From the NCBI GenBank assembly GCA_002352665.1, contig DEIV01000007.1, positions 39,766-103,765 on the forward strand: a DNA stretch of 64,000 nt, given 5' to 3'. A program made the position numbers and the translations under genes. The notes beneath the pieces are model-generated. The model made no database searches, was not told the DNA's origin, and worked only from the letters and a program-made list of their open reading frames with translations. Numbering within the stretch: position 1 is the stretch's first letter; each line of letters starts with the position of its first letter. Positions 40,123-54,205 of this stretch are shown one piece after another. The stretch is from Flavobacteriaceae bacterium UBA2765. GTDB lineage: Bacteria > Bacteroidota > Bacteroidia > Flavobacteriales > Flavobacteriaceae.

Positions 40123-40944
40123 ATGAAAAAAACACTATTCATATTATTGATGATATGCTTTTATTCTTGTAAAAAGGAAGATAAAGTACAAACTATAGAT
40201 ATAAAACAAGTTAAAGTATTAGATACTATATACTGTGATAGCAAACCAACAACTACAAAGAAAAAATTAGCAATGTATAATTCAGATTATACTTCTATCA
40301 TTAGTGTCTATCCACTAAAAGATCAAAAAATCACTGTTGCTAATGGACAAGATGTAGCAATTTGTTATCAAAATGAAATTGAGATTGTATTATTAAAAAA
40401 TAAAGATACTGTATATAATATAATTGTAAATATGGATACTATTTTCAATAATATTTCACCCTATGATAAAAGTATGTTTAAAGAAAAATTAAAAAACATA
40501 AAGCTTGATTCAATTTTTGTACGTTCACCTAGGGCAGAATACTTATATTATAATTGGAATTGTATAGATCATACAAATAATAAAGAGTATACTACAACAG
40601 ATGTATTTCAGTATATTGGTAAATCAGTAGGGAAGTTACGACCATATAATTTTAGCCGTTTGATTAACAGTTACCTCAAAGAGCAGACATTAGAGCAGAT
40701 TAATCAAAGTTTTGGTGCACCAATAGCTCAAGAAATATTTATAATGGATGGTAGTCTACCAGAGTTTAGAGGTAATCTTGAACATTATATTTCAAAAGAA
40801 GAGTATACAAAAGATTCCATTTCAATAAAAGAGGTTACATGGAGGATAAATAAAGATGATAATGTAACCATTTGGTATCAACAAAGAGAAAATAATTGGA
40901 AAGCTGTTGATGTTTTCAATTGGAATAAAAATGCAGAATTTTAA
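40123..40944 (+). CDS. Hypothetical lipoprotein
   Basis: Lipobox-like CFYSCKKED. Confidence 0.75.
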   Translation: MKKTLFILLMICFYSCKKEDKVQTIDIKQVKVLDTIYCDSKPTTTKKKLAMYNSDYTSIISVYPLKDQKITVANGQDVAICYQNEIEIVLLKNKDTVYNIIVNMDTIFNNISPYDKSMFKEKLKNIKLDSIFVRSPRAEYLYYNWNCIDHTNNKEYTTTDVFQYIGKSVGKLRPYNFSRLINSYLKEQTLEQINQSFGAPIAQEIFIMDGSLPEFRGNLEHYISKEEYTKDSISIKEVTWRINKDDNVTIWYQQRENNWKAVDVFNWNKNAEF

Positions 40945-41017
40945 TTATAGCAAAATAGATTGAAAAATAGAGGTTTTGGTTTTGAACAAAAAATCATTTC
41001 TCTTTATATCAAAAAAG

Positions 41018-41044
41018 AAGCGAGTTTCATTTTGAAACTCGCTT
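41018..41044. terminator. Hairpin terminator between the array and tRNA-Arg
   Basis: Perfect 12-bp arms AAGCGAGTTTCA-ttt-TGAAACTCGCTT, with an A-tract on the left (U-tract on the minus strand). Confidence 0.85.
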
Positions 41045-41059
41045 GTAATTAATTTTTTG

Positions 41060-41133
<74 letters not shown>

Positions 41134-41236
41134 ATTATGATTAGTTTTTGCTAATCATGAATGAAATTTTAATTTGTAACAAAGCTTATAATTTTCTTGA
41201 GAAAGTGAACTTTCAACGTATACCAATAGCTTTAGT

Positions 41237-41254
41237 TTGTCGTGATGGCAGAAT
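41237..41254 (-). repeat. Decayed copy of the tRNA-Pro 3' end (old att-like site)
   Basis: TTGTCGTGATGGCAGAAT vs TTGTCGGGGTGGCAGGAT, 15/18 identical. Confidence 0.5.
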
Positions 41255-41366
41255 ATTGTCAAACCACACTATATTTTTAATAATCAAAAAGTTACGTCTT
41301 AATACATTCACTAGGTAACTTATTTGATAAGAACTTTTGTTTTTTTTTTACCTTTTTAAAGGTGGG

Positions 41367-41374
41367 CAAATATA
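41367..41374 (-). promoter_or_regulatory. -7 promoter box directed at tRNA-Arg
   Basis: TATATTTG on the minus strand, followed by CCCACC. Confidence 0.7.
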
Positions 41375-41528
41375 CAATTTTTACTAAAAAACATTAATAA
41401 AATTTTAAGTTTTTATATATTAAATCTTTGCTTGAAGATATTCGAGAAATCCAAGAGAATAAAAGGACAACTTTTCTTGTTTAGATTCAGTTAATTTTGA
41501 TAATAACAAGACCCTTTGTCTCTATTTT

Positions 41529-41676
41529 TCAAGACATAGAATACTCTGATGACTCTGTCTCAGGATTATTTATTAACTGTTTTATCATTGGTGTTCCGCT
41601 AAAGTGTGTATTTTTGTTCATATCGAAATCTTGTGATGAAAATCAATATATAAATAGAGTGTGAAAGCCATCTATG
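41529..41676 (-). mobile_element. Remnant left end and first codons of an IS4-family (DUF4372-type) transposase
   Basis: Minus-strand ORF from 41621, MNKNTHFSGTPMIKQLINN..., resembles the recalled N-terminus of Bacteroidota IS4 transposases (MNKS.NFSGTPIIKQ.LNF). Stops after 30 codons. Candidate end CATAGATGGCTTTCACACTC at 41676. Confidence 0.5.
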
Positions 41677-41793
41677 GAAATCCCACTTTTAAAAAGTTTT
41701 ATCGAACACTAATGTATTTTTATAGTTATATTAAAAGTATGCAATGGTGTACTTATTGTTTTTGTTAGAAATTTTTAAAATCAAAACTTTTGA

Positions 41794-44700
41794 ATGGTTC
41801 AGTATAAAAGAATAGAAATATTAATTTGTATAACACTTACATTCTTTTGTCTTACTAAAGGTTTGGGACAAAATGAAACTGGCGAAAATTATAATGCTGA
41901 AAACGGTTTATCTTCTAATTGGGTTTCTTGTTTTCAATTAGACGATAACGGGTATCTTTGGTTAGGCACGCAAAATGGTCTTAATAGATTTGATGGAATA
42001 AATTTTAAAAAGTATTATAACAAGCCATTTGACAATAATAGTATTGCAAGTAATTGGGTACGTAATATAGTAAAGGATGAAACAGGTAATTTTTGGTTGG
42101 GAACCATTGGAGGTGGTTTGCAAAAATTTAATCCGTACAAACATACCTTTGACAAAAATTTTTTAATCGAAGGTGAACAACCAACCGTAGTTAAGAGAAT
42201 TGTTATATCTAACGATAAAATTTGGGTAGTTTCTGATAGAGGTTTGCTAATGGCTAAAAAACCTTATAAGAGTTTCAAGTATATATCAAAAAGTTTTTAT
42301 ATAAATATAACTAATCTAGGTAAAGAACATTTGATTTTGAGCAATAAGGATGGCCTTTTTTTATTAAATAAAAAGTCTAATCATATTCGTAGTATTAGCG
42401 AACAAAATCATCAGACGATTGCTGAAATCAATACAGATAATTTTTTTGTTTTAGAAAATCAATATATTTCAAAATATCAGATTAAAGATTCCTTAATTAA
42501 CAAATTAAGTAGTCATAAATTAAATCTTGATAATTCTAATTCAACCCTTTGGGGATCAATAAAGTTATTTTCTTCATCTTATGGAATATTAATCACATCA
42601 AAAGATGAAATTTTTAGATATGATGATACAACAAATAGTTTAATTCCCTTTTTTAAATATAGTAACAAATCTGATGACAATACAGTATTAAGCTACTATG
42701 AAACTAAAAAAGGAGATTTATGGATTGGCACAAAAAAAGGTGTATACCATCTTAGTAATCATAAAAAAACCTATGGAGATGCAGATAATGGTTGGCAAAA
42801 TGTAAAAGATGTAAAGGTTAGAGAAATTCAACTTGAAAACAATGTGCTTTGGTTAGCCAATGAAAAAGGACTGAAAAGTTATTACAAAAATAAAGAGCTT
42901 AAAACATACCTAAAGGGTAATATTACTGCGTTTAAAAAAGTAAATAACAATCTATATGCTGCAGGAAAAGATCAAAATGATCAAGCTAATTTTTGGCATA
43001 TTAACTTAAAAACAGGTCAAACTAAAAGTTTTGCTCTAAAAGACTTCAAGGCAGAAGGTAATATTTGGAAAATATTACCTGATAATGATAGAATTTTGAT
43101 TGCCGGACAATATAACTTTGGTTATTATAATTTAAAAGATGAAACTTTAAATTTTTTAAACAAAATTGGTAATCAAAAATTAAAATCGTTGGTTATTACC
43201 GATCTCTTAAAACATCATGATGAACTATGGATTGCAACACTTGATGGGCTTTTTATAACTAAAAACAATAGTTTTAAATCGGTAAAGCATTTAATAAGAA
43301 ATAAAAAAAATGGCTTAACCAATAATATTATTATGGATATACACAAAGATCAAAATGATAATATTTGGTTAGCAACTGAGGGAGGATTGCATCTATATAA
43401 TGAGAAAAATTCAACTTTTAAACACTGGGGAAGAAAAGATGGTCTTTTAGATGCTAAAGTACTAACTATTGAGTCTGACAATGAAGGCTCTCTTTGGTTA
43501 GGAACTAACTCATCAGGCCTCTTTAAATTTAATCCTTCAGATGAATCTTTTACCAATTTTAATAAAAAATTGGGACTAAGCTCTGATGAATTTTTAATGA
43601 GTGCTGGTTTTAGCCAAGACAATCAAATATTTTTAGGTACTGAAAACGAAATAGTAACTTTTGATGCCAGTACATTGCAACTTCCAAATAAAGATACGCT
43701 TAAGTTAAAAATAGAAACAATTCATGTTGATAAAGGTATTGATGATGAATTACTTAACCAAGAAACTCAAAATAAACTTGTGTTACCTTATAATTATGGT
43801 AATTTATCATTTCATTTTAATGCACCAAATTACTACAACCCAAAATCTACAACGTATTCGTATAAAGTAAATGGCTTATACGATTCTTGGGTTGATTTAG
43901 GGACATCAAATTCATTTTCGCTTGTCAATTTACCGCATGGTAACTATCAAATTCAAATAAAAGCTGAAAACCCGCTTTATACAACTTCAATACAATCATT
44001 TGCATTAACTATAAAGAGGGCTTTTTATAATACGTTTTGGGCTTGGATTCTTTATTCATCGACTCTTTTAAGTATACTTTTTTATTTTTGGAAACATTTT
44101 AAAAATAAATTAATCATCAAAAATAAATTAGAAAACCTAAAAGAGATCAATAGCTTAAAATCTAAAATGTATGCAGAAATATCTCACGAAATTAAAACAC
44201 CATTAACCCTAATAAAAGGAAATACTTCTTTACTTGCTAAAGAAGAAATAACTGAAGAACAAAAAAAAGCAATAGGCACTATTAAAAAAAGTTCAAAAGA
44301 AGTATTAAGTCTAGTAAATCAGATGTTAGATCTAGTCGCTATAGATGTAAAAAGATTTGAATTAAACTATGTTTCTAAAGATATTGTCATCTTCTTGAAA
44401 CAGTGTATCGCCTTATTTGAATCTAGAGCAAAAAACCAAAGAAAAGAACTTTTACTTAACAGCTCAACAGAAAGTTTAATTTCTAGTATTGATGTCCAAA
44501 ATTTAAAAAAAGTTATTTTCAATTTAATTACAAATGCTTTAAAATTTACGCCAACAAACGGAATTATAACCCTTGAATTGTTAGCTTCACCACCAAATAA
44601 TTTTATCATTAAAGTGAGTGATACCGGTAAAGGTATACAAGCGGAACATTTGCCAAGAATATTTGATAGATATTATAAAACTTTTGACTTAGAAAATAAT

Positions 44701-45669
44701 CTTGGATCTGGTATAGGTATGTCTTTAACAAAAGAGATTATCCAATTGATGGAAGGTGAAATAAAAGTTGAAAGTACTGTTAATCAAGGAACAACGTTTA
44801 CTATAACACTCCCAATTCAAAAAAGTAATGACAGTATTAACGATGAAAATAAGATAGAATTATTACCTTCTAACCCTTCATCTACCTTAAAAGAAGAATT
44901 TCAGTTAGTAGTAGTAGATGATAATGCCAGTTTGCTGGAATATTATAGTCAACTTTTAGACAATACTTACAATGTTAGCTACTTTCAGAATGGAAAAACA
45001 GCACTGCAATATGTTAAGAAAAATCATTGTGACTTCATTTTGAGTGATGCGATAATGCCCATAATGGATGGCTTTCAGCTTTGTAAAGAACTGAGAAAAG
45101 ATTGGACAACCTCTCACATACCTTTTATTATGGTCAGTGCTTTATCTAACTTAGAAAATAAAAATGAGGGATATAAAATAGGTGTTGATGCTTTTCTAGA
45201 AAAACCTTTTGAAGAGCAAGAATTATTAGCAGTAATTCATAACCTTTTAAACAAACAAAAAATAAGAGCCAGTTATTTTAAAAAGTACTTTAACGTTAAA
45301 AAAGAGGTCAATGCTTTATTAGCACCTAAAGATTTAGACTTTATTGATAAGCTACATAGCTTAGTATTCAATAAAGATAAAAATATTAATATTGAGATTC
45401 TTTCACAAGAACTTGGATTAAGTCGTAGTCAATTACACAGAAAAATTAAATCACTTACCGAAATGTCAACGACAGCCTATATTAACAATATAAGAATTGA
45501 AAAAGCAAAGCAATTACTTTTAAGTTCAAATTTAGACATAAACGAAATTGCATATCAAATAGGTTTTTCTGACGCCGGGTATTTCATAAAAACGTTTAAA
45601 AAACAGTTACATAGTACGCCTAAGAATTGGCGAGATACCTATAAAAAATCTGCTCCTGACAACAAATGA
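41794..45669 (+). CDS. Hybrid two-component system sensor/regulator (HTCS)
   Basis: Reg_prop propeller repeats (GYLWLGTQNGLNRFDG, NIWLATEGGL), Y_Y_Y domain, TM, HisKA SHEIKTPL, HATPase DTGKGI/GSGIG, REC SDAIMPIMDG and AraC HTH. Confidence 0.95.
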   Translation: MVQYKRIEILICITLTFFCLTKGLGQNETGENYNAENGLSSNWVSCFQLDDNGYLWLGTQNGLNRFDGINFKKYYNKPFDNNSIASNWVRNIVKDETGNFWLGTIGGGLQKFNPYKHTFDKNFLIEGEQPTVVKRIVISNDKIWVVSDRGLLMAKKPYKSFKYISKSFYINITNLGKEHLILSNKDGLFLLNKKSNHIRSISEQNHQTIAEINTDNFFVLENQYISKYQIKDSLINKLSSHKLNLDNSNSTLWGSIKLFSSSYGILITSKDEIFRYDDTTNSLIPFFKYSNKSDDNTVLSYYETKKGDLWIGTKKGVYHLSNHKKTYGDADNGWQNVKDVKVREIQLENNVLWLANEKGLKSYYKNKELKTYLKGNITAFKKVNNNLYAAGKDQNDQANFWHINLKTGQTKSFALKDFKAEGNIWKILPDNDRILIAGQYNFGYYNLKDETLNFLNKIGNQKLKSLVITDLLKHHDELWIATLDGLFITKNNSFKSVKHLIRNKKNGLTNNIIMDIHKDQNDNIWLATEGGLHLYNEKNSTFKHWGRKDGLLDAKVLTIESDNEGSLWLGTNSSGLFKFNPSDESFTNFNKKLGLSSDEFLMSAGFSQDNQIFLGTENEIVTFDASTLQLPNKDTLKLKIETIHVDKGIDDELLNQETQNKLVLPYNYGNLSFHFNAPNYYNPKSTTYSYKVNGLYDSWVDLGTSNSFSLVNLPHGNYQIQIKAENPLYTTSIQSFALTIKRAFYNTFWAWILYSSTLLSILFYFWKHFKNKLIIKNKLENLKEINSLKSKMYAEISHEIKTPLTLIKGNTSLLAKEEITEEQKKAIGTIKKSSKEVLSLVNQMLDLVAIDVKRFELNYVSKDIVIFLKQCIALFESRAKNQRKELLLNSSTESLISSIDVQNLKKVIFNLITNALKFTPTNGIITLELLASPPNNFIIKVSDTGKGIQAEHLPRIFDRYYKTFDLENNLGSGIGMSLTKEIIQLMEGEIKVESTVNQGTTFTITLPIQKSNDSINDENKIELLPSNPSSTLKEEFQLVVVDDNASLLEYYSQLLDNTYNVSYFQNGKTALQYVKKNHCDFILSDAIMPIMDGFQLCKELRKDWTTSHIPFIMVSALSNLENKNEGYKIGVDAFLEKPFEEQELLAVIHNLLNKQKIRASYFKKYFNVKKEVNALLAPKDLDFIDKLHSLVFNKDKNINIEILSQELGLSRSQLHRKIKSLTEMSTTAYINNIRIEKAKQLLLSSNLDINEIAYQIGFSDAGYFIKTFKKQLHSTPKNWRDTYKKSAPDNK

Positions 45670-45732
45670 AACAATAGTCCCATCATTTGACACATTGGTC
45701 CAATTTGTAATTTCATACTTCATCTAGTTTTG
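45667..45732 (+). promoter_or_regulatory. AraC-type tandem direct repeat plus -7 box
   Basis: TGAAACAATAGTCCCA (45667) and TGACACATTGGTCCAA (45688): 21-bp period, 12/16 identical; then TAGTTTTG (45725-45732). Confidence 0.6.
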
Positions 45733-45898
45733 TCCTCTAAAGAATTTATATAAAAATTTTTATATGATGAGATAGGCTTCATTTATTGGTTTATCAATAT
45801 TAATAAATGAAGCGAGTCTATAAAAGAACTAACCACTCTTTTGAGTAAGTATATGGTATACTTATTAGGAATAATAATATTAATAAAAAAAATGAAAA

Positions 45899-47053
45899 AT
45901 GAAAAAACTAAAAACAATTTATTCAATTTTACTAGTCTCTATTTTAATTTTATCCTCTTGTAAAAAGGATGATGATTCAACACCTCAATCCCCTCCAGAT
46001 TATGCCAGTGAGTTTGTAGGTCTTTGGAAATTTGACAATGATGAAGATTATGCCGACGCCATATTTTTTGGACCTAGTGGAGAGGCTTTTCTAGTCTTTT
46101 ATGGTGATTTAAATACTATACACCTTATCCCCGCAGATTTTAATACTTATGAATTTGAAAACAATCAAGTTAACTATTTAAAATTCGGAGATAATCCCAT
46201 CCCTTATGAGGGTGGAAACACTTTTGCCATTCCAGGGAATAGTATGACTAAAGTTGATGGCGTCAATAAATTAGATGATTTAATTGAAACGCTTAATAAT
46301 GTCAAAGACGCAATTAGTGTAGATGTTACTACTTTTTTAACAGGTGATACATATAATAACCTTGATGGTTTTGGTGATCATTTATTGGTCCCTAATCCAT
46401 CTGCAGAAGAAGGAAGGTATATCCGCTTTCAAAAATCTAATTTAAATTTTGTAGAAGAAGTTACCGGTGTTGGTCAAACGACTACGTCAATTGGTGTTTA
46501 TGACACCAATCCATTTGAGCTACTCTCTGTTTTAGAGAATAACAATAAATTTCGTACATATCAGCCAAGTAACCCTGCTTTTCATCATCCAGCTGTAGAT
46601 GACATCCCTTTTTCACCAAACCGATATAGTTGTCATGCAGTGACCAACGAAAGTGGTAGAGACCTAATTAGTTATAATCGTAATACAAAATCATTTAATT
46701 ATCATGATGTAAACATCATAAATGAACAACAAGGGGTGTCGTCATTTGCTTTTTATAAATTACCATTCAAATTAAATATTCGTGGAATGGATTATGTAGA
46801 AGATGAAAACAAATTATTGATAACCGATACTTATAACATACACATTTTTAATGTTGGTTTTAATAGTGATAGAGATGATGTTTCGGTTTTTGAACATGAG
46901 CGTTCTATAAGTATCGTGCCATTACAATTAACCAATGAATCTTTTTTTGGAAGAATTCAAGGACTTTATTACGATTCAAATGAAACTTTATATATGGTAA
47001 TAAACAACGGAAGTGTTATCAAATTAGTAAAAATCGTATTCGAATACTTTTAA
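45899..47053 (+). CDS. Hypothetical surface lipoprotein
   Basis: Lipobox LSSC followed by KKDDD, a Bacteroidota lipoprotein-export-signal-like acidic stretch. Confidence 0.8.
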   Translation: MKKLKTIYSILLVSILILSSCKKDDDSTPQSPPDYASEFVGLWKFDNDEDYADAIFFGPSGEAFLVFYGDLNTIHLIPADFNTYEFENNQVNYLKFGDNPIPYEGGNTFAIPGNSMTKVDGVNKLDDLIETLNNVKDAISVDVTTFLTGDTYNNLDGFGDHLLVPNPSAEEGRYIRFQKSNLNFVEEVTGVGQTTTSIGVYDTNPFELLSVLENNNKFRTYQPSNPAFHHPAVDDIPFSPNRYSCHAVTNESGRDLISYNRNTKSFNYHDVNIINEQQGVSSFAFYKLPFKLNIRGMDYVEDENKLLITDTYNIHIFNVGFNSDRDDVSVFEHERSISIVPLQLTNESFFGRIQGLYYDSNETLYMVINNGSVIKLVKIVFEYF

Positions 47054-47145
47054 TACATAAAATGAGCGATAACAAATAAGTTGAAACCGAAATGATTAAA
47101 ATGGGGAATCCCATCTAAACATTGAAAAACAACAAATATAAACAG

Positions 47146-48162
47146 ATGAAAAAAATAATTAAAAACATCCTACTCATCTTTATAGCTCTTTTTACAATGA
47201 GCTGTAGTGAAGATAACAATAATATTCCAGAGCAACCCACCACATCAGCATCACCTGATATATATGTTGTAGGAAAAATAAAAAACATCCCTATGCTTTG
47301 GAAAAATCGTACTGCAAGTGAACTGACGGGCGGAACCTATACAGCAGAAGCTCATTCTGTAACAGTTGCTAATAATGATGTTTACGTTGCGGGTTTTGAA
47401 AAAATAAACCTTACTAAAAAAGCTACACTGTGGAAAAATGGAAATGCTATTGATTTATCAAGTAACGCATTTACATCTTATGCCCGTTCTGTAACAGTAG
47501 TGAATAGCGATGTGTATGTTGCTGGCTTCGAGTATGAAACAAGTGGAAGTACTTTTGTAGCAAAAGTATGGAAAAATGGTGTTTCAAGCAATTTGACCAA
47601 TGGTAACCATGATGCCTTAGCAGAATCAATTAGAGTAGTAAATAATGATGTTTATGTGGCAGGTTATGAGTCAATAGGATTTGTTGATGTAGCTAAACTC
47701 TGGAAAAATGGTAGTGCAACTAATTTAACAGATGGCACCCATGAAGCTAGGGCCTACTCAGTAGCAGTAGATAATAATGATGTCTATGTGGTAGGTTATG
47801 AATTTATTGATGGTTATCATGTTGCCAAAATCTGGAAAAACGGTGTTGGAAGTAATTTAACCGATCTTAGTGTGGATGCTAAAGCCTATTCTGTAGCGGT
47901 AGAAAATAATAATGTATATGTTGCAGGTTATAAAGGTTTGGTTGCGACACTATGGATAAATGGTGAGGCTAATTCGCTATCAACAGGAAACGTACTTGGT
48001 AATGTAGCCAGATCAGTAACCTTAAATAATAGTGATGTCTATGTTGTAGGATATGTGTATGAAGAAGGTAAAACAATAGCTAAAATTTGGAAAAATGGAC
48101 AATCAAACAATTTAACAGAAAGTACTGAGGATACTGTTGCAAATTCAATTTATCTCCATTAA
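47146..48162 (+). CDS. Beta-propeller-type repeat lipoprotein
   Basis: Lipobox TMSC-SEDNN; about six ~47-aa repeats DVYV(A/V)G.E....A..WKNG...L; ATG 47146 preferred over the TTG at 47122. Confidence 0.8.
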   Translation: MKKIIKNILLIFIALFTMSCSEDNNNIPEQPTTSASPDIYVVGKIKNIPMLWKNRTASELTGGTYTAEAHSVTVANNDVYVAGFEKINLTKKATLWKNGNAIDLSSNAFTSYARSVTVVNSDVYVAGFEYETSGSTFVAKVWKNGVSSNLTNGNHDALAESIRVVNNDVYVAGYESIGFVDVAKLWKNGSATNLTDGTHEARAYSVAVDNNDVYVVGYEFIDGYHVAKIWKNGVGSNLTDLSVDAKAYSVAVENNNVYVAGYKGLVATLWINGEANSLSTGNVLGNVARSVTLNNSDVYVVGYVYEEGKTIAKIWKNGQSNNLTESTEDTVANSIYLH

Positions 48163-48192
48163 AAAGGAAATCAAATTATTAAAATATAATTA

Positions 48193-48237
48193 ATGAAAAA
48201 AATAATTAGAAACACGCTGCTCATTTTTATAAAATAA
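48193..48237 (+). pseudogene. 14-codon stub duplicating the start of the 47146 gene
   Basis: MKKIIRNTLLIFIK* vs MKKIIKNILLIFIA. Confidence 0.55.
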
Positions 48238-48242
48238 AAACT

Positions 48243-49034
48243 ATGAAAAAAATAATTTATTTACTAATAATTCCACTGCTATTTTTACAATGTAGCAGTG
48301 ATGATGACAATGGTCCAAAAGCTTATTTTCCTAAAAAAATTTCTATTGAGCCCATCACCAATATTTTATCGAACAGTAAAGAATTAATTCTTACTTACAA
48401 TAACAATAATTTAATTACTACAATTGAATTTGTTTATTTTGGTACTGTTAATGTAAATTCATTTAAGGAAATACAAATAGCATATACTACAAATAATGAC
48501 ATCAAAGAAATAAAAAGTATAAGTCTTGATAATCTAGAATCTATCACTACTATTAATCATGATGATTTTGGTATAATCTCACAAATAAATTTTCAGTCAG
48601 AAGATATTGGTTTAAAAATAAATGCAAATTACAACGCTCAAAGCAACATTTATACTCTAAACGGTGCATCAGCAATTTTTCCTATTACATTTAATTTTGA
48701 TAATAATGACGTAATACATGCAATAGGTGGTTCGGCAATAAACAACCGAAATTTTCATTATAACACACAAGAAACAGGTCTCTTTAAAGACTTAAGGCAA
48801 CAACCTGAATTAATCATGTGGTCAGAAATATTCACTTTTGGAAGCTTAAATGTAAATCTAAATTATTTGGCACCTTATAAATTAGAGAAAATAACATCCC
48901 AATTTCTAAATCATCGTCTTTACGATAATTTTGAAAAGGATGCTTCCGAAAATCTGATAAAATTTACTGATAAAGTACTTGGAGGAGGAGGTGAAAACCA
49001 ATACTCCATTTCTTACCAATATAGAAATTTATAA
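48243..49034 (+). CDS. Hypothetical surface lipoprotein
   Basis: Lipobox FLQC-SSDDDN. Confidence 0.8.
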   Translation: MKKIIYLLIIPLLFLQCSSDDDNGPKAYFPKKISIEPITNILSNSKELILTYNNNNLITTIEFVYFGTVNVNSFKEIQIAYTTNNDIKEIKSISLDNLESITTINHDDFGIISQINFQSEDIGLKINANYNAQSNIYTLNGASAIFPITFNFDNNDVIHAIGGSAINNRNFHYNTQETGLFKDLRQQPELIMWSEIFTFGSLNVNLNYLAPYKLEKITSQFLNHRLYDNFEKDASENLIKFTDKVLGGGGENQYSISYQYRNL

Positions 49035-49066
49035 AAAATAAATATAACAATTAAAATTTATAAAAA

Positions 49067-49681
49067 ATGAAAAAAATAATCATAAGTATAGTACTTATAA
49101 TATCACCAATAATAATGGTTGCACAACAACAAAACACACCTTTTATAGAAGTATTAGGTACGGTTAATTATAAGGCAAAAGCAGAAAAATATATTGCAAG
49201 CATTGAAATGTCAAAATATCTAATAAATAATGTAATTAATAAAGAAGATATAACCTTTGCAGATATAAAAGAAAACTATTTTAAAAAATTAAAAAATGCA
49301 GGCTTTGATAGACAAAGATTTAAAGAAATTTCAATGAAATATTTATCATATAGTCAAGATAAAAGTGTAATGTTAATTTTTGAAACTGAATCAAAAGAAG
49401 AGTTTGAGAATGTATTAAGTATCAAAAGTGCTGGGGTAAATATTATGTATAAAGATGTAATTTTTAAAATAACGAATCAGCAATTAGAAAATTTATCATA
49501 TAATGCCATAGAAAAGGCCAAGAAAAAAGCAGAAAAGATTGCTTTAAAAAATGGTAGAAAAATTGGTAAAATAATTATGATATCAGATCATAACTCTGCT
49601 ACAATAAAAGAAGCTCTTTATTATTTAAATGCAGATGGTGAAAAGCTATATCTAGTTACTGTTAGGTTTGAACTTTTATAA
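49067..49681 (+). CDS. SIMPL (DUF541) domain protein
   Basis: Signal peptide; IEVLG...KA; AIEKAKKKAEKIA...GRKIGKIIMISD; terminal VTVRFEL. Confidence 0.75.
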   Translation: MKKIIISIVLIISPIIMVAQQQNTPFIEVLGTVNYKAKAEKYIASIEMSKYLINNVINKEDITFADIKENYFKKLKNAGFDRQRFKEISMKYLSYSQDKSVMLIFETESKEEFENVLSIKSAGVNIMYKDVIFKITNQQLENLSYNAIEKAKKKAEKIALKNGRKIGKIIMISDHNSATIKEALYYLNADGEKLYLVTVRFELL

Positions 49682-49897
49682 ATTAAAAACATTGAAAACA
49701 ATTATTAAATAAGATAATTTATTAGATATAAAACATATTGTCAAAATGTTGAAAATTGATTTGCCTAATCGCTTTGCAAGGAAGAATTTTGATAATACCA
49801 TTCAAGTTGCTCAAAGAAAATTGACTTATCAACGAACCTATATTGAAGTTAACAAGAACAAATAAAAAAGCCTTCTACTATTGTGAAAAGCTTTCTC

Positions 49898-49916
49898 TTG
49901 TCGGGGTGGCAGGATT
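49898..49916 (-). repeat. att-like copy of the tRNA-Pro 3' end
   Basis: TTGTCGGGGTGGCAGGATT, identical to 53549-53567 (19 bp). Confidence 0.95.
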
Positions 49917-50076
49917 ACTCGTTTCACTCATGATCCTATAGATGGTTTAGTGCTCATTAAAAACTAAAATGCTACTGCATTTTTATTATTATTATTTTCA
50001 TTTCGGTTATGAAGCAAGCTTCAACCTCATGAAAATAAAAAAACCCATAAATCAAATGATTTATAGGTTTTTAATG
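49917..50076. other. 160-bp structured, non-coding unit between two att copies
   Basis: Hairpins at 49994-50036 (core TGAAGC-aa-GCTTCA) and 50041-50070 (core ATAAATCA-aa-TGATTTAT, followed by a U-tract on the minus strand). Confidence 0.7.
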
Positions 50077-50093
50077 GTCGGGGTGGCAGGATT
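50077..50093 (-). repeat. att-like copy of the tRNA-Pro 3' end
   Basis: GTCGGGGTGGCAGGATT, identical to 53551-53567 (17 bp). Confidence 0.95.
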
Positions 50094-50223
50094 AATTAAA
50101 ATTTCACAACCCCTTATATTTCAATGTATTAAACACTTTTAACTATATGCTGTTCACCGAATTGCACACTAAAGTTAAAAAAGAACTATTTAAAAACAAA
50201 TTTTATTCGTCTTTAAGGTTCGG

Positions 50224-50231
50224 CAAATATA
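50224..50231 (-). promoter_or_regulatory. Outward-facing -7 promoter box at the island end
   Basis: TATATTTG on the minus strand, 130 bp from the att copy at 50093. Confidence 0.55.
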
Positions 50232-50355
50232 ATATGCTATTAATTGTTACACAAGATAATTTATACTTTAATTTTAGTTTATAATCTAAGTACGGAATTT
50301 TATCAAAATAAGAGATTCATGGCTATCCAAAAACCTTGAAGTTCTTAGAATTAAA

Positions 50356-51717
50356 TTATTTTGTCACTAATAGTTTTCCTGTTAGTATTTCATCTTTATA
50401 TTTTACACGAACAATATAAATACCTTCATTCCAGCCTGCTGTTTGTATTTTTATGCTTTTACTTTTCAGTTTGTCTTTTTTTAATTTTTGAACATTCATG
50501 AGGTCGTAAATTTCTAAATCCCATTCTCCAATTTTATCAAAAGTTGTTTCGGCTGATGACGATTTCTGATCCGTTTCTTCCGGGTTACCTTGTTCAATAG
50601 AAACTGTGGTTTCACCGTAGGTGGGGTTAGGGTAAAAACTTAGATAATAATTTTGCATTATCTGGTAAGACTCGCTATGCCAATTCCCTTCTCCACATGG
50701 GTTATGAGCCCTGACGTAAACAGTTTCATAGCCGTAACTGTAAGGAGGTACAAATACCACAGAAACCATATCTTTATCTTCCGTTTCAAAATGACTCCAA
50801 CCAGAACTGTAATTCCAGTCATAATCATCAATACCCATAACGGTTTCATCTACAGCATAAGTTTTGGTTGTAACCCACAGAACATTTTGTTCCCCAGCTA
50901 CAAAAAAATCCTGTCCACTATAATTTGAATTTTGAATATCCAATTCATTAGGTGAAGGTGGGCCTGCCCACAAGTTTTTTTGAGTAGAATAGCCAGATAC
51001 TGTTGCCTTTATCCATCCGATTCCTGAACCACTTGCAGAAAAGTTACAAGGATTCGAGCCTTGAGATGAGTTCATAGTAATATTACTACTTTTGCTCCAA
51101 GTAATAGTTGATCCACTAGGAAGATTATTCATAGTAAAAGGAGATCCTGCTGAACAAATTATATCAGGTCCAGATATTGAAGGTGGTGTGAAATTTCTTT
51201 TATAATATTTTAAAACAGAGGAATTATATGGAGTATAGGTAGGATTATGCCTCATTAAAGGCCATTGCCCCCATTTTGAATCATATTTTCCTGAAACGAC
51301 TGATTCAATTGCTGAATGATCATCACTTGCATAGGATATTTTTTCCGCCTCCGTTGAGGAGATTTCAATATAACTACCATCCTGCCAATATTTATCATCA
51401 CCAGGTGTATTCATCCAATAATTTGTACAACCTGTACATTCTGTCAAATACCATGCATACGCATGGCAATTATATGTTGTTGAAGCATCGTTTATTATTG
51501 TTGCATTAGGAAATGCCGCTGCCGCTTGAGCGTTAGTGGCAATAATCTGGCTTTGCGACATTTCATTAAATATTAATACAGTTACTGGTGTACCATTTGG
51601 AGTGTACACAGTTGTTGATTGTGCAAAAGAGCTGTTTAAAGGAAATAATAAAGCATAGAGACTTACTATTACAGATAAGTTTGTTGGTAATTTAAGGAAT
51701 TTAAAATTGGTTTGCAT
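50356..51717 (-). CDS. T9SS type A cargo protein with a putative papain-like Cys/His domain and an Ig-like linker
   Basis: Signal peptide (NSSFA-Q); YNC84HAYAW, DH134SAI and SKWG..PLMRH; C-terminal T9SS signal FYPNPT...GWNEGIYIVRV...TGKLLV. Confidence 0.85.
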   Translation of the reverse strand: MQTNFKFLKLPTNLSVIVSLYALLFPLNSSFAQSTTVYTPNGTPVTVLIFNEMSQSQIIATNAQAAAAFPNATIINDASTTYNCHAYAWYLTECTGCTNYWMNTPGDDKYWQDGSYIEISSTEAEKISYASDDHSAIESVVSGKYDSKWGQWPLMRHNPTYTPYNSSVLKYYKRNFTPPSISGPDIICSAGSPFTMNNLPSGSTITWSKSSNITMNSSQGSNPCNFSASGSGIGWIKATVSGYSTQKNLWAGPPSPNELDIQNSNYSGQDFFVAGEQNVLWVTTKTYAVDETVMGIDDYDWNYSSGWSHFETEDKDMVSVVFVPPYSYGYETVYVRAHNPCGEGNWHSESYQIMQNYYLSFYPNPTYGETTVSIEQGNPEETDQKSSSAETTFDKIGEWDLEIYDLMNVQKLKKDKLKSKSIKIQTAGWNEGIYIVRVKYKDEILTGKLLVTK

Positions 51718-52438
51718 AATCTAATATTATATTTAAGGTTTCTATATTATTGTTTAGTTCAACATCATTTATAAAGATGTTCATAAAGTTATTAGTAGCT
51801 ATTTCTTCTAAAAAAGGGGCATAGTTTTCAAGAACCATTACTCTGGCCATGATTAGTGCCTCTACTTTTAGATTAAAAATACTATATGGGTCTCCGATTC
51901 TCTTAAACTCAATATATTTATTAATTGCTTCATTTAAAAGTTCCCTTCTTTCGGCGGGAGTCAATTGTTCTATAAAAATATTTTGGGCTTGTACCATACT
52001 CATGTAAATGAAAAACAAGCTGTAATCTACTATATCAGTATTGTTAGGAGGACAAGAAGGGTTCATTAGTTTAAAACGGTTCAACATTAAGCGACCTGCC
52101 TCGTTTCTTGATTCAAGTGTAATGAATCCATTAAAATTATTCATTTGACTTTCAGTACCTTTTTGAATACTTTCAAATGCAAGCATACTACTTAACAAAG
52201 GGTAGTCCAAGCACGTTTCAACCAAGCCGTAAGTACTGATACTTGTAAGTTTATCTTCAGGTAACTGAAGGATGTCAATCATTTCTTGTCCACTAGTCAA
52301 TTCTTCCCATTCGGGCATCCCTGGCCTTACAGGAAATATATATTGGTCGGATGGCTTAGGAGAGAAAGTCAAACAAATTTCCTCATCATGCTTATTACAA
52401 GCTATCAATATGACGAATAATATATATATATATTTCAT
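51701..52438 (-). CDS. Uncharacterised lipoprotein, paralog of 52435-53154
   Basis: Lipobox LIAC; YIFPVRPGMPEW, QLPEDKLTSISTYGLVETCLDYPLL and FNG; overlaps the T9SS gene by 17 nt. Confidence 0.85.
   Translation of the reverse strand: MKYIYILFVILIACNKHDEEICLTFSPKPSDQYIFPVRPGMPEWEELTSGQEMIDILQLPEDKLTSISTYGLVETCLDYPLLSSMLAFESIQKGTESQMNNFNGFITLESRNEAGRLMLNRFKLMNPSCPPNNTDIVDYSLFFIYMSMVQAQNIFIEQLTPAERRELLNEAINKYIEFKRIGDPYSIFNLKVEALIMARVMVLENYAPFLEEIATNNFMNIFINDVELNNNIETLNIILDYANQF
52420..52433. repeat. (AT)7 simple sequence repeat in the first codons of the lipoprotein gene
   Basis: ATATATATATATAT within MKYIYIL. Confidence 0.8.
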
Positions 52439-53154
52439 TCTATAAACATTCGTCCTTTTTCCATTATATCGTCAATGATAGCCAAATCAACAAGCAGACC
52501 TTTTTCAATAAAAATACTTTTAGCAAAATTAGCTTTGTCACTCTCTAGGTTTTGCGAGGTATCAGACTCCAAAGATCTCCCCATTACCCATATCGAAATA
52601 GAGGTGCCATGTGTGCTAAAAATAGAAATATGTTTTTGCTTAGAATTATACTTATCAAAACACAATTTTACCAAGTCTTTTTTCTCAGCCACTATTAAAG
52701 TAGATAAAATAACCTTTTGGGCAAGAAAGGTTTCAATATACGAAAACTCAAATGTAAAGTTTCCTTTTTGTTCATCTGTCCATTCAGAATTATAATTATT
52801 AGGAGACATTTTCGAGTAAACTTTTATTAATTCGGTTCCTGAATCTTTTCTACTTATTAATTCTTGAATACCATTGAATTTTTTTGTCAAAGCATTAAAA
52901 CCTGTCTGCAAATCGTCATATGCGAATAGGGTGCTTAAAAGCGGATAATTTAAACATGTTGTTACTAAATCTCCAGTCGACATTGATTTTAACATTTCTT
53001 CAGGTATTTGACAAGCCAAATACATTTCTTCAGAATTATTAAATTGCTTCCATTCTTCATCTCCAGGTCTTATTGGAAAATTATAAGGTTGGCTATACAT
53101 GTTTATAGCGAACACACAAAAGAGTACAAATAGATAATTGATTTTTTCTTTCAT
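52435..53154 (-). CDS. Uncharacterised exported protein, paralog of 51701-52438
   Basis: SPI-type signal (AINMYS-Q); YNFPIRPGDEEW, QIPEEMLKSMSTGDLVTTCLNYPLL and FNG; ATGA overlap with the next gene. Confidence 0.85.
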   Translation of the reverse strand: MKEKINYLFVLFCVFAINMYSQPYNFPIRPGDEEWKQFNNSEEMYLACQIPEEMLKSMSTGDLVTTCLNYPLLSTLFAYDDLQTGFNALTKKFNGIQELISRKDSGTELIKVYSKMSPNNYNSEWTDEQKGNFTFEFSYIETFLAQKVILSTLIVAEKKDLVKLCFDKYNSKQKHISIFSTHGTSISIWVMGRSLESDTSQNLESDKANFAKSIFIEKGLLVDLAIIDDIMEKGRMFIE

Positions 53155-53300
53155 TGTTTTTAATATTTTAAAAGTTAGATTTTTAGTTTATATTTTTATA
53201 AAATATTTCCCTCTAGACAACTAATTGTTCCTAATGAGTTTCTCAACAACTTTGATTTATCTAATACAAGTTTTAGGATTCTATATTTAGAAGATAGTAA

Positions 53301-53308
53301 CAAAGTTA
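53301..53308 (-). promoter_or_regulatory. -7 promoter box for the three-gene cassette
   Basis: TAACTTTG on the minus strand, about 147 nt upstream of the 53154 start. Confidence 0.55.
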
Positions 53309-53551
53309 CTAAATTGCGAATTATAGTTTTATGACTTTTATCATAATTCAAAATCAATTGAGTGTATGAGATAAACGGTTTGGTAAACCAGTAATTTTAT
53401 TATGGTTTTCCCGTAAAAAAGATAGTTCGTTAAATAGAATTAACTAATCATAAAAAATTCTCTATATAAGCGTGTTCGTAAAACTAAGGGGGAAAAGCAA
53501 GAGGGTAACACGCTACGCGATGTTACTAATCTATAATTTACTGTTTTTTTG

Positions 53552-53626
53552 TCGGGGTGGCAGGATTCGAACCTGCGGCCTCCACGTCCCAAACGTGGCG
53601 CGATAACCGGGCTACGCTACACCCCG
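53552..53626 (-). tRNA. tRNA-Pro(TGG)
   Basis: CGGGGTGTAGCGTAGCCCGGTTATCGCG-CCACG-TTTGGGA-CGTGG..GGTTCGAATCC..CACCCCGA. Confidence 0.97.
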
Positions 53627-53717
53627 AAATGGTTATCAAACTTTTATAATAACCCTGTAACAATTTTTGTTACTTTTCAATACATCAAAGCGTAGTTTAT
53701 CCCGCATTTGATGCGGG

Positions 53718-53742
53718 GCTACACCCTGAATAGGTTATCAAA
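53718..53742 (-). repeat. Duplicated tRNA-Pro 5' end plus upstream flank
   Basis: GCTACACCCTGAATAGGTTATCAAA vs 53616-53640 GCTACACCCCGAAATGGTTATCAAA (22/25), adjacent to the hairpin CCCGCAT-ttg-ATGCGGG. Confidence 0.8.
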
Positions 53743-53904
53743 AATATGAAAGAAGAGATTAACTTCGTTGATCCCTTTTACCACATTCTGCTAATAGAAT
53801 TGGAAATGTGCCTAAGGCACATTTAAATCTTTTAGAATAAAAACCAATTCAAGCGAGCTTGATTAATTTTTATTTCAAAAAGCTTAATCAATTCTATTTG
53901 ATTG

Positions 53905-53991
53905 CGGAGAGGAAGGGATTCGAACCCCCGGTACCCGTAAAGGTACAACTCCTTAGCAGGGAGCCCCGATCGACCACTCCGGCACCTCTCC
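53905..53991 (-). tRNA. tRNA-Ser(GCT)
   Basis: GGAGAGGTGCCGGAGTGG..CTCC-CTGCTAA-GGAG, long variable arm GTACC-TTTACG-GGTAC, GGTTCGAATCC..CCTCTCCG. Confidence 0.97.
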
Positions 53992-54025
53992 AAAATTAAT
54001 GAACATCACTTTTTTTAAGTGGCTG

Positions 54026-54033
54026 CAAATGTA
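54026..54033 (-). promoter_or_regulatory. -7 promoter box for the tRNA-Ser/Pro operon
   Basis: TACATTTG on the minus strand, followed by CAGCC, 34 nt from tRNA-Ser. Confidence 0.8.
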
Positions 54034-54205
54034 ATAAATTTGATGATTTACCACCTAATATTTTTATAATATTTTACAAGAAATTAGTAAATACCTTTAT
54101 TTAAGAATCTAAATAAATAATATTTAACATCTTATAAGCTTTCATTGTTCAGAATATATTATAAATTTAGTGATTATAATTAGCAATAACTTAAACAAAT
54201 TATAC

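Follow-up and report, generated by a model that had tools for sequence, protein, structure and literature searches.

A 12-kb run of accessory genes is wedged between tRNA-Arg(TCT) and tRNA-Pro(TGG), two tRNA genes that are adjacent in related species, in the genome of a marine Aureibaculum. This region very probably consists of integrative elements that site-specific tyrosine integrases inserted in tandem and that have since decayed. The reading is drawn from core repeats, an empty site in relatives, flanking arms homologous to those found in elements that carry an integrase, and integrases that are themselves absent or disrupted. The window, i.e. the whole 64,000-nt stretch of DNA analyzed, lies on a 121-kb contig (C139) of a draft assembly of 155 contigs. 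The tRNA genes, attachment cores and flanking landmarks were as follows:

41059-41133, minus strand: tRNA-Arg(TCT), last gene of the ancestral Ser-Pro-Arg cluster (ARAGORN; Rfam, 71 bits)
41134-41236: spacer between Arg and Pro in the ancestral cluster and chromosomal (B) flank of the attachment site, aligning with the 103-nt spacer of G014
41237-41254, plus strand: O4', displaced and decayed tRNA-Pro 3' end at the outermost junction (15/18)
49898-49916, plus strand: core O3, exact 19-mer (17-nt core plus TT)
50077-50093, plus strand: core O2, exact 17-mer
from 53551: core O1, the first 17 nt (plus strand) of tRNA-Pro and the live attachment site
53551-53626, minus strand: intact tRNA-Pro(TGG) (ARAGORN; Rfam, 67.5 bits)
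53716-53746: incomplete duplicate of the tRNA-Pro leader and 5' end
53904-53991, minus strand: tRNA-Ser(GCT), first gene of the cluster (ARAGORN; Rfam)

The 17-nt core GTCGGGGTGGCAGGATT occurs exactly at 49900, 50077 and 53551, with no match in 100 shuffled sequences. A search with the 18-mer TTGTCGGGGTGGCAGGAT allowing up to three mismatches added the 15/18 copy at 41237-41254 (chance expectation 0.01). The cores delimit segments of 8.6 kb (41255-49897), 160 bp (49917-50076) and 3.46 kb (50094-53550). An earlier note on this DNA had described two exact copies, one 15/18 copy and the segment sizes; its layout and repeat coordinates were borne out. Its worry that the 17-mer might be common genome-wide was dispelled, as only seven copies exist: three here, two at a second tRNA-Pro(TGG) (contig C140) and two within an array of units (contig C152), all in a tRNA-Pro or island-junction context. 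All core copies end at the same T-loop nucleotide of tRNA-Pro, and each is followed, towards the tRNA, by a different hairpin and T-run.

An empty, compact Ser-Pro-Arg locus, as predicted in the earlier note if the cluster had been split by insertion, was found in two congeneric species, with a Pro-Arg gap of 14 nt in G012 and 103 nt in G014. The Arg-spacer-Pro stretch of G014 aligns to 41059-41254 of the window with 85% identity over 196 nt, the closest genomes compared being other species (85% spacer identity), and the position of O4' matches exactly the tRNA-Pro 3' end of this empty site. Because the alignment extends from tRNA-Arg across the spacer and into the decayed core, 41255-53550 (12.3 kb) is, judging by this comparison, DNA inserted between tRNA-Arg and tRNA-Pro. 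Adjacency of the Ser and Pro genes is kept across the genus in the relatives compared. The Pro-Arg interval measures 2.3 kb in G002, 5.9 kb in G016 and 9.4 kb in G005, and G013 carries a tRNA-Pro array of ~59 kb with four cores and two integrase types.

It is highly improbable that the repeats are decayed tandem duplicates of tRNA-Pro, chance matches or assembly artefacts, with ancestral genes lying between them. The partial 5' copy at 53716-53746 does show some local duplication, and the genome is a draft in 155 contigs; however, all copies stop at one T-loop nucleotide, the chance expectation is ~0, relatives possess the empty site, and the arms flanking the repeats are homologous to those of integrase-bearing elements. 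Furthermore, the repeat flanks differ from the C140 copies (89-91% identity), which makes a collapsed or chimeric assembly unlikely.

Integrases targeting tRNA-Pro, which the earlier note had proposed to look for, lie directly after this tRNA gene, at a distance of about 215-240 nt, in five congeners (G013, G022, G006, G004 and G001) and, in disrupted form, at the second tRNA-Pro on C140. At 47 of 74 testable Flavobacteriaceae loci, the integrase start was preceded by the end of tRNA-Pro at a distance of 213-394 nt (213-238 nt in nearly all), and ~20 further loci had a core at about -227. The integrases of the relatives are of the Bacteroidota type, 400-420 aa long, with Arm-DNA-bind_5, Phage_int_SAM_5 and Phage_integrase domains; these arm-binding tyrosine integrases would constitute a tRNA-Pro-specific family, delineated here. 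Among the 61 P arms scored, most have two copies of GGTGT(G/A)CA at a spacing of 12 nt; GTTACCT occurs twice in type-2 P arms, and the P'A and P'C arms described below contain inverted site pairs. The sites covary with integrase lineage (type 1 versus type 2); conservation and covariation are the two features that point to their putative role as arm-type sites.

According to these comparisons, the integrases would have recombined within the final 13-17 nt of tRNA-Pro(TGG), and an intact family element consists, in the tRNA direction, of tRNA-Pro with the core, P arm, integrase, cargo, P' arm and displaced core copy. The intact P arm (~215 nt) comprises a terminator hairpin, a direct pair of putative arm-type sites spaced by 12 nt and the integrase promoter, and the P' arm (~140-160 nt) the same site pair in inverted orientation.

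The inner, 3.5-kb cassette contains the following features:

50094-50231: distal arm P'A, of type-1 integrase elements
50356-51717, minus strand: T9SS-secreted protein, 453 aa, with PKD_6 and Por_Secre_tail (Pfam, NCBIfam)
51701-53154, minus strand: two paralogous genes of 245 and 239 aa (ORFs), 29% identical to each other
53420-53538: non-coding block adjoining tRNA-Pro, 83% identical to G006 L041 2175-2290

Integrase-bearing elements in C140, G022, G006 and G013 have distal arms that share 79-89% identity with P'A. Within P'A, two GGTGTGCA-like sites form an imperfect inverted pair (50151-50170) that matches the direct repeat in the type-1 integrase P arm. The C-terminal 278 aa of the 453-aa protein are 75% identical to an S8-subtilase T9SS protein of the C140 element; its N-terminal domain received no assignment from Pfam or NCBIfam, and searches of the same two databases gave no match for the paralogues. 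The corresponding order in G006 runs from tRNA-Pro through the P arm and the integrase (604-1842) to the homologue of 53420-53538, 340 nt downstream of the integrase. The same block abuts tRNA-Pro here, which indicates that the P arm and integrase were deleted. Its hairpin motif has four occurrences in the genome. Descent from an integrase-bearing element is thus indicated by the block position in G006 and by the P'A arm and T9SS gene held in common with the C140 element, and by homology the cassette is what a type-1 element left behind.

The outer, 8.6-kb block contains a hybrid two-component system (HTCS) regulator and lipoprotein genes:

41255-41417: distal arm P'C, of type-2 tRNA-Pro integrase elements
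41374-41367, minus strand: TATATTTG box within P'C, a putative promoter pointing towards tRNA-Arg
41794-45669, plus strand: HTCS sensor/regulator, 1291 aa (Pfam)
45899-49681, plus strand: four genes for predicted lipoproteins/secreted proteins (ORFs), at 45899-47053, 47122-48162 (44-aa repeats), 48243-49034 and 49067-49681 (SIMPL-like)
49860-49897, minus strand: terminator-like hairpin at the tRNA-proximal end, adjoining O3

P'C shares 77-84% identity with core-adjacent arms in G004 (two) and G013 (two) and with tRNA-Arg-adjacent remnants in G002 and G005; the elements with this arm in G013 and G004 carry a type-2 integrase. A 17-nt deletion in the P'C of the window takes out one of two putative GGTAAC sites. 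O4' differs by two substitutions from the core GTCGGGGTGGCAGAATG common to other junctions of this arm type, and its ...GAAT ending is common to all of them. Real decay in O4' would therefore amount to those two substitutions only. The earlier note had taken the decayed copy for the oldest: its decay is genuine to that extent and its greater age plausible, though not proven, with the GAAT ending being a trait of the arm type.

Pfam domains of the 1291-aa regulator are Reg_prop, Y_Y_Y, HisKA, HATPase_c, Response_reg and HTH_18, and SIMPL was the sole Pfam match among the four downstream genes. Homologues of the lipoprotein genes lie within the G013 tRNA-Pro array, between cores 2804413 and 2818410, and also in G021, where the regulator has a homologue of 60% identity. 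The surroundings of the G021 cluster are different, and neither a core nor a tRNA was found within the 12 kb examined, so this HTCS/lipoprotein gene set is not exclusively island-borne. At the proximal end of the block, the hairpin at 49860-49897 is 93% identical to C152 7997-8036, where a core likewise comes next; beyond this hairpin, 49682-49897 had no canonical P-arm homology. The distal arm is thus the sole basis for a type-2 origin, and by its homology the block is a probable type-2 remnant.

Between these two blocks lies the short segment:

49917-50076: 160-bp arm-only unit, comprising P'B motif, palindrome and terminator hairpin
49917-49937: P'B motif ACTCGTTTCACTCATGATCC
within 49917-50076: palindrome TGAAGCAAGCTTCA
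50039-50072: terminator hairpin of the unit

The unit is 91% identical to C140 11164-11335 and 89% to C140 4452-4615, and is also present in G002, G003 and one Polaribacter MAG. It might be an autonomous miniature non-coding integrative element, made of att sites only, that inserted here as a separate third event, which we regard as improbable. The presence/absence difference between G013 (tRNA, core, P arm, integrase) and C140 (tRNA, core, unit, degenerate core, 97% identical canonical P arm, integrase) is bounded exactly by cores. Three to four tandem units occur in C152, pairs of cores separated by 135-177 nt are found in G002, G022, the Polaribacter MAG and an Algibacter genome, and the core-P'B junction turned up in a single further genus among the 200 sampled. 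However, the C152 units are only ~70% alike, and in G003 the P'B motif terminates a larger element, so that such units can arise by internal deletion. Moreover, the block 49914-50231, spanning the P'A-core-unit junction, is contiguous and 89% identical to the C140 junction, which fits co-transfer; the unit may thus have come within a composite element. A 177-bp circle would also be expected to be a poor substrate for arm-dependent tyrosine integrases. The unit therefore appears to be a recurrent arm-only remnant for which a separate event in this genome is not obvious. As for the earlier claim of at least three successive events, the four cores do imply three somewhere in the history of the stack, while in this genome at least two, and not necessarily three, took place.

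In agreement with the earlier statement that no integrase remains, a PF00589 (tyrosine recombinase) profile search gave no match on the whole 121-kb contig. The gene content of the stack is confined to regulator, lipoprotein and T9SS cargo, with no integration or transfer genes detected with Pfam, NCBIfam and PF00589. Neither a canonical P arm nor a GGTGT[GA]CA site was found in 41000-53700, so that a complete attR is lacking from every segment. Type-1 integrase genes occur in the genome only as the two on C140, at the second tRNA-Pro, and both are disrupted: int#1, 94% identical to an intact orthologue, by a 1-nt deletion in an A6 run, and int#2 by a stop codon and a frameshift. A sequencing error might account for the int#1 frameshift, which falls within a homopolymer of this draft assembly; the cell would then still have a working type-1 integrase. 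A type-2 integrase is absent from the genome, the best other integrase (C116) being 44% identical.

The segments could still be mobile, as att-flanked non-autonomous passengers for whose excision and reintegration the C140 type-1 integrase, or that of an incoming element, would act in trans, but we consider this unlikely. O1, O2 and O3 are exact, P'A keeps its site pair, the single missing A of int#1 may be an assembly error, and G002, G005, G016 and G013 also contain integrase-less blocks with arms of the same types; cis-mobilisation of such elements is described for streptococci in PMC5704250. Against this stand the lack of any complete attR in the stack, the lack of a type-2 integrase in the genome, the core substitutions and arm deletion at the type-2 junction, and int#2, which is clearly dead. 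The earlier note had left the islands as either immobilised or mobilised in trans; immobilisation is the better supported, given the missing integrase-proximal arms, the P'C deletion and the disruption of both type-1 integrases. The islands are thus probably immobile at present, and the 3.5-kb cassette alone appears to keep a complete distal site.

For the stack of decayed elements, we infer the following order of events. A type-2 element (GTTACC sites, P'C) carrying the HTCS/lipoprotein genes would have entered the compact Ser-Pro-Arg cluster. A further element, now the 160-bp arm-only unit, would also have inserted, possibly within a composite, and a type-1 element (GGTGTGCA sites, P'A) with T9SS cargo would then have been stacked on the tRNA side. 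Each insertion would have regenerated the tRNA and moved older elements outward. Later deletions would have removed all P arms and integrases, with decay of the outermost junction as well, leaving the segments as fixed accessory gene blocks. The 3.5-kb cassette could presumably leave only as passenger of a new type-1 element at the tRNA (cis-mobilisation).

Among known systems, the mobilizable elements NBU1 and NBU2 of Bacteroides integrate into the 3' ends of tRNA-Leu and tRNA-Ser. They resemble the family described here in their Bacteroidota arm-binding tyrosine integrases, the tRNA 3'-end target and the integrase adjoining the regenerated tRNA. They differ in target tRNA and in that no mob/oriT genes were identified here, the likeness to IntN1/IntN2 being one of description; nor were conjugation or mobilisation genes seen in the relatives' elements examined.

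Displaced tRNA fragments mark island ends in Islander-type tRNA/tmRNA islands, which likewise target the tRNA 3' part, regenerate the tRNA, leave a displaced 3' fragment at the far end and form tandem arrays (PMC4383910). However, their defining integrase gene is missing here, being confined to the relatives and to the second tRNA-Pro. Marine genomes also provide examples of elements stacked together with partial tRNAs: in the tycheposons and tRNA-anchored islands of Prochlorococcus, also marine, repeated integration at one tRNA displaces older elements inward, and scattered partial tRNAs, degenerated elements and niche-adaptive cargo are found (10.1101/2020.12.28.424599). This likeness is one of description; integrase family and host phylum differ, and no replication or packaging module is present here.

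A parallel in build-up and decay is offered by CIMEs (cis-mobilizable elements), the att-flanked islands derived from ICEs and IMEs (ICESt1/ICESt3 of Streptococcus thermophilus) by deletion of integrase and transfer genes, as outlined in PMC5704250, which cites Pavlovic 2004 and Bellanger 2011 for tandem accretion and decay to CIMEs. The segments described here similarly lack integration and transfer genes, the integrase having been lost by deletion from the 3.5-kb cassette and probably also from the 8.6-kb block. They differ from the CIMEs treated in that source in host (a marine flavobacterium), target (tRNA-Pro) and integrase type (Bacteroidota, Arm-DNA-bind_5). The definition given there includes functional attL and attR, whereas here the cores are accompanied by distal (P') arms only. 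CIMEs may travel along with a functional neighbouring element (PMC5704250); no functional element adjoins the present stack. The locus is thus CIME-like, combining tandem accretion with decay, a known route by which islands are built up and degraded.

Three tRNA genes frame the stack, whose parts are described below in the tRNA direction (high to low coordinates):

41059-41133, minus strand: tRNA-Arg(TCT), by tRNA prediction and Rfam
53551-53626, minus strand: tRNA-Pro(TGG), by tRNA prediction and Rfam
53904-53991, minus strand: tRNA-Ser(GCT), by tRNA prediction and Rfam

Read on the plus strand, the tRNA-Pro 3′ end is the 17-mer GTCGGGGTGGCAGGATT. Exact copies were found in tRNA-Pro (core O1), at 50077 (O2) and at 49900 (O3), with no match in 100 shuffles, and the 18-mer with two flanking T's, at 3 mismatches, located a decayed outermost core at 41237-41254 (O4′; chance expectation 0.01). 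On re-measurement, the repeat coordinates, match counts (19, 17 and 15 of 18) and segment sizes of the earlier note were all correct. High genome-wide frequency of the 17-mer, which that note had named as a point against its reading, was not observed: there are just seven copies in the whole 3.98-Mb draft genome, those outside the window lying at 4616 and 11336 of contig C140 (the latter in a tRNA-Pro) and at 7864 and 8037 of contig C152, in an array of units. An Rfam search of 40900-54200 recovered just the three tRNAs plus a single chance match below threshold; neither the 160-bp unit nor the hairpin motif of the cassette matched a known RNA family.

The Ser-Pro locus was compared in 13 congeners, the relatives compared being different species from the window's genome. 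The predicted empty Ser-Pro-Arg locus is present in G014 and G012, where the three tRNAs are contiguous, with an Arg-Pro gap of 103 nt and 14 nt, respectively. The tRNA-Arg of G014, its spacer and the first 16 nt of tRNA-Pro align with window positions 41059-41254 at 85% identity. Since this alignment reaches the decayed copy, the latter sits exactly where the 3′ end of tRNA-Pro falls when the locus is uninterrupted; 41255-53550 is consequently inserted DNA. The Pro-Arg interval measures 2.3 kb in G002, 5.9 kb in G016 and 9.4 kb in G005, all three without an integrase; G013 carries an array of ~59 kb, whose cores lie at 2759008, 2797048, 2804413 and 2818410.

The flank past tRNA-Arg (window ~8600-41058) is variable too. 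Homologues of window positions up to 8600 come within ~2.6 kb after tRNA-Arg in G002, while in G012, G016 and G014 tRNA-Arg is followed by homologues of another contig of the window's genome (C105). The ~32 kb beyond the window tRNA-Arg are specific to the arrangement found here and include a 1289-aa MORN/SH3 protein (35270-39139), whose gene was considered as a paralogue of the island hybrid two-component system (HTCS) and rejected. Neither an integrase nor a repeat of the tRNA-Arg 3′ end, which would mark an island to the left of tRNA-Arg, was found in this flank. On the other side, a 127-nt segment between tRNA-Pro and tRNA-Ser (53628-53754) is missing from the closest relative, G014. In it, the tRNA-Pro leader and the first ~10 nt of tRNA-Pro are present once more (53716-53746), as what looks like a 5′-end pseudo-fragment; a strong hairpin (CCCGCAT..ATGCGGG) comes next in the tRNA direction.

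In G013, G022, G006, G004 and G001, a tyrosine integrase of 400-422 aa (domains Arm-DNA-bind_5, Phage_int_SAM_5 and Phage_integrase) begins just downstream of tRNA-Pro. A scan of GTDB species genomes recovered 80 such loci at 65-93% identity from many marine Flavobacteriaceae genera. Upstream sequence was sufficient at 74 loci; of these, 47 have the end of a tRNA-Pro (TGG or GGG) 213-394 nt from the integrase start (nearly all 213-238), and ~20 further loci have a core at about -227 and no whole tRNA, thus occupying internal array positions. At least two lineages, ~51% identical to each other, were distinguished: type 1 (G013, G022, G006 and C140) and type 2 (G004 and the second G013 element), with G001 representing a third, related lineage.

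Each integrase-proximal (P) arm opens right after the tRNA end with a hairpin and T-run, whose structure is kept while its sequence varies by element. Type-1 P arms contain a direct GGTGT(G/A)CA pair with 12-nt spacing, ~100-112 nt from the core, which is present in most of the 61 P arms scored; type-2 P arms contain GTTACCT twice in the same place. The matching pairs are inverted in the distal arms, as AGTGTGCAATT(A/C)GGTG(T/A)ACA in P′A and GGTAACCGAATAGGTAAC in P′C. Conservation and covariation suggest that these pairs (GGTGTGCA and GTTACC) are putative arm-type binding sites. No account of these tRNA-Pro elements of Flavobacteriaceae turned up in a literature search. The comparison delineates two related tRNA-Pro-specific integrase lineages, widespread in marine Flavobacteriaceae, and the covariation of arm sites with lineage gives a precise att-site anatomy for island annotation in an ecologically important family.

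Within the 3.5-kb cassette, tRNA-Pro/O1 is followed by 22 nt and a non-coding block (53538-53420, tRNA direction), whose homologue in G006 is found 340 nt past the integrase stop. As this block is near the tRNA here and past the integrase in G006, the P arm and integrase of the cassette were deleted. Alignment of 53300-53570 to canonical P arms revealed shared hairpins and no further homology. The cargo comprises two paralogous genes without assigned function and a 453-aa T9SS protein, whose PKD/CTD half shares 75% identity with the S8-subtilase T9SS protein of a C140 element; searched against PDB and NCBIfam, the cargo received no functional assignment except PKD and the T9SS tail. The far end is a P′A arm (50231-50094), then O2. 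The hairpin motif GGTAACACGCTACGCGATGTTAC has four copies in the genome (window 53497-53535, C116:35861-35902, C4:13530-13587 and C150:1400-1438). An intact 415-aa integrase precedes the C116 copy, and in G006 the motif, which has no Rfam match, follows the tRNA-Pro integrase at a distance of 340 nt.

P′A, O2 and the 160-bp unit form one contiguous block (49914-50231), 89% identical to C140 4452-4768, with the unit and then O3 on the tRNA-distal side of O2. Both tandem elements of C140 show the order outer core, unit, degenerate core (GTTAGAGTGACGGAATT), canonical P arm and integrase; the G013 P arm is 97% identical to that of C140, and the unit is absent there. The unit opens with the motif ACTCGTTTCACTCRTGATCC (P′B) and closes with a terminator hairpin. 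In G003, P′B ends a larger element that abuts a core, P arm and integrase. We read the unit as probably an element that lost its interior and kept just its two arm ends. P′B was also considered as a genome-wide REP-like repeat; this was rejected, all six copies in the genome being at a tRNA-Pro core. A further three to four tandem ~175-nt units, ~70% alike and each ending in a tRNA-Pro core, occur at C152:7519-8053, in a 1.9-kb non-coding stretch of a 42-kb contig with no tRNA gene; G013 synteny gave no informative match that would connect this array with the C140 island at its far end. The motif GGATCACGAGTGAAGCGAGTAATCC is common to the unit and to ~100-nt tandem repeats in loci L043 (G005; 544-860) and L104 (1-180), which are followed by a different hairpin and not by a tRNA core; the G005 copies are just downstream of tRNA-Pro.

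In the tRNA direction, the 8.6-kb block starts with a terminator-like hairpin (49897-49860, 93% identical to C152), followed by the cargo (a SIMPL-like lipoprotein, three other lipoproteins and an HTCS), the P′C arm (41417-41255) and O4′. Apart from hairpins, 49682-49897 showed no homology to canonical P arms on alignment. In G004 and G013, GTCGGGGTGGCAGAATG precedes each P′C arm (two per genome), and the elements have a type-2 integrase. O4′ differs from the GTCGGGGTGGCAGAATG consensus by just two core substitutions, and the window P′C has a 17-nt deletion that takes out one of two GGTAAC sites. Judged by this one arm, the block is probably a type-2 element. Homologues of its lipoprotein genes and a distant HTCS occur in the third segment of the G013 array, which lacks an integrase, and the full homologous cluster (60-74% protein identity) is found in another context in G021, with no core within 12 kb.

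The non-coding stretch upstream of the HTCS gene (41569-41711) is 78% identical to G003:C120 729-868, ~470 nt from a core/P arm/integrase junction, and is a candidate for a regulatory or RNA element conserved among such islands. The lipoprotein gene 47122-48162, mostly five to six tandem 132-nt (44-aa) repeats, has paralogues on C43 and C116. The Bacteroidota -7 consensus is TAnnTTTG. Both P′ arms contain GGCAAATATA, which reads TATATTTG on the tRNA strand and fits this consensus; the P′C copy faces tRNA-Arg. We hypothesize that splitting the cluster cost tRNA-Arg its operon promoter, and that the P′C box is a candidate replacement.

The earlier note stated that no integrase remains, and indeed none was found on the window's contig; nor did 41000-53700 contain a canonical P arm or a GGTGT[GA]CA site. 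The genome search suggested in the note located a second tRNA-Pro(TGG) at C140:1-11411 with two tandem type-1 elements. Genes for an S8 subtilase with T9SS tail, small lipoproteins, SSB and a RadC-like JAB protein are among their cargo. Both integrase genes are broken: the first, 94% identical to the G013 integrase, lacks one A from an A6 run, and the second is interrupted by a stop codon and a frameshift. The only other similar integrase, encoded on C116, shares just 41-44% identity with each type; a role for it at the type-2 junction was rejected at 44% identity to type 2.

Tandem accretion followed by decay is supported with refinements. Three integration events over the history of this DNA follow from the four cores, as previously proposed; for the genome itself the number falls to at least two, because the P′A-core-unit junction also occurs on C140 and the unit possibly arrived within a composite element. 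Provided that newcomers insert at the site containing the tRNA, the 8.6-kb block would have come first, the unit second and the cassette last. The decay of O4′ and P′C agrees with this order, and with the decayed site as the oldest, but does not prove it.

The segments retain distal arms only. If a new integrase element docked at the tRNA, its P arm could recombine with a P′ junction, mobilising the segment as a passenger in cis. This would be possible in principle for the cassette, with its exact O2 and site pair, and hardly for the 8.6-kb block. It is conceivable, though we consider it improbable, that the distal-arm-only layout is functional and not simply decayed, and that marine Flavobacteriaceae have a passenger system built on it: blocks would need a core and a ~150-nt P′ arm, one tRNA-Pro-docked integrase element would collect any number of them via its own P arm and a farther P′ junction, and 160-177-bp units would be minimal passengers. 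If true, this would amount to integron-like, tRNA-anchored shuffling of regulator, lipoprotein and T9SS cassettes between species.

The stack illustrates a route by which accessory sensing and surface genes (HTCS, lipoproteins, T9SS cargo) are acquired and then fixed in Aureibaculum genomes, and shows that a tRNA operon can be split in the process. That tRNA islands accrete in tandem and decay is textbook knowledge. This process has been described for cis-mobilizable elements (CIMEs) derived from ICEs and IMEs (PMC5704250) and for tRNA islands generally (PMC4383910), and stacked elements with partial tRNAs are reported in marine Prochlorococcus (10.1101/2020.12.28.424599). The stack is of an already known kind and adds a member in a little-studied host family, not a new principle: it resembles CIMEs (PMC5704250), as decayed islands in tandem at a tRNA.
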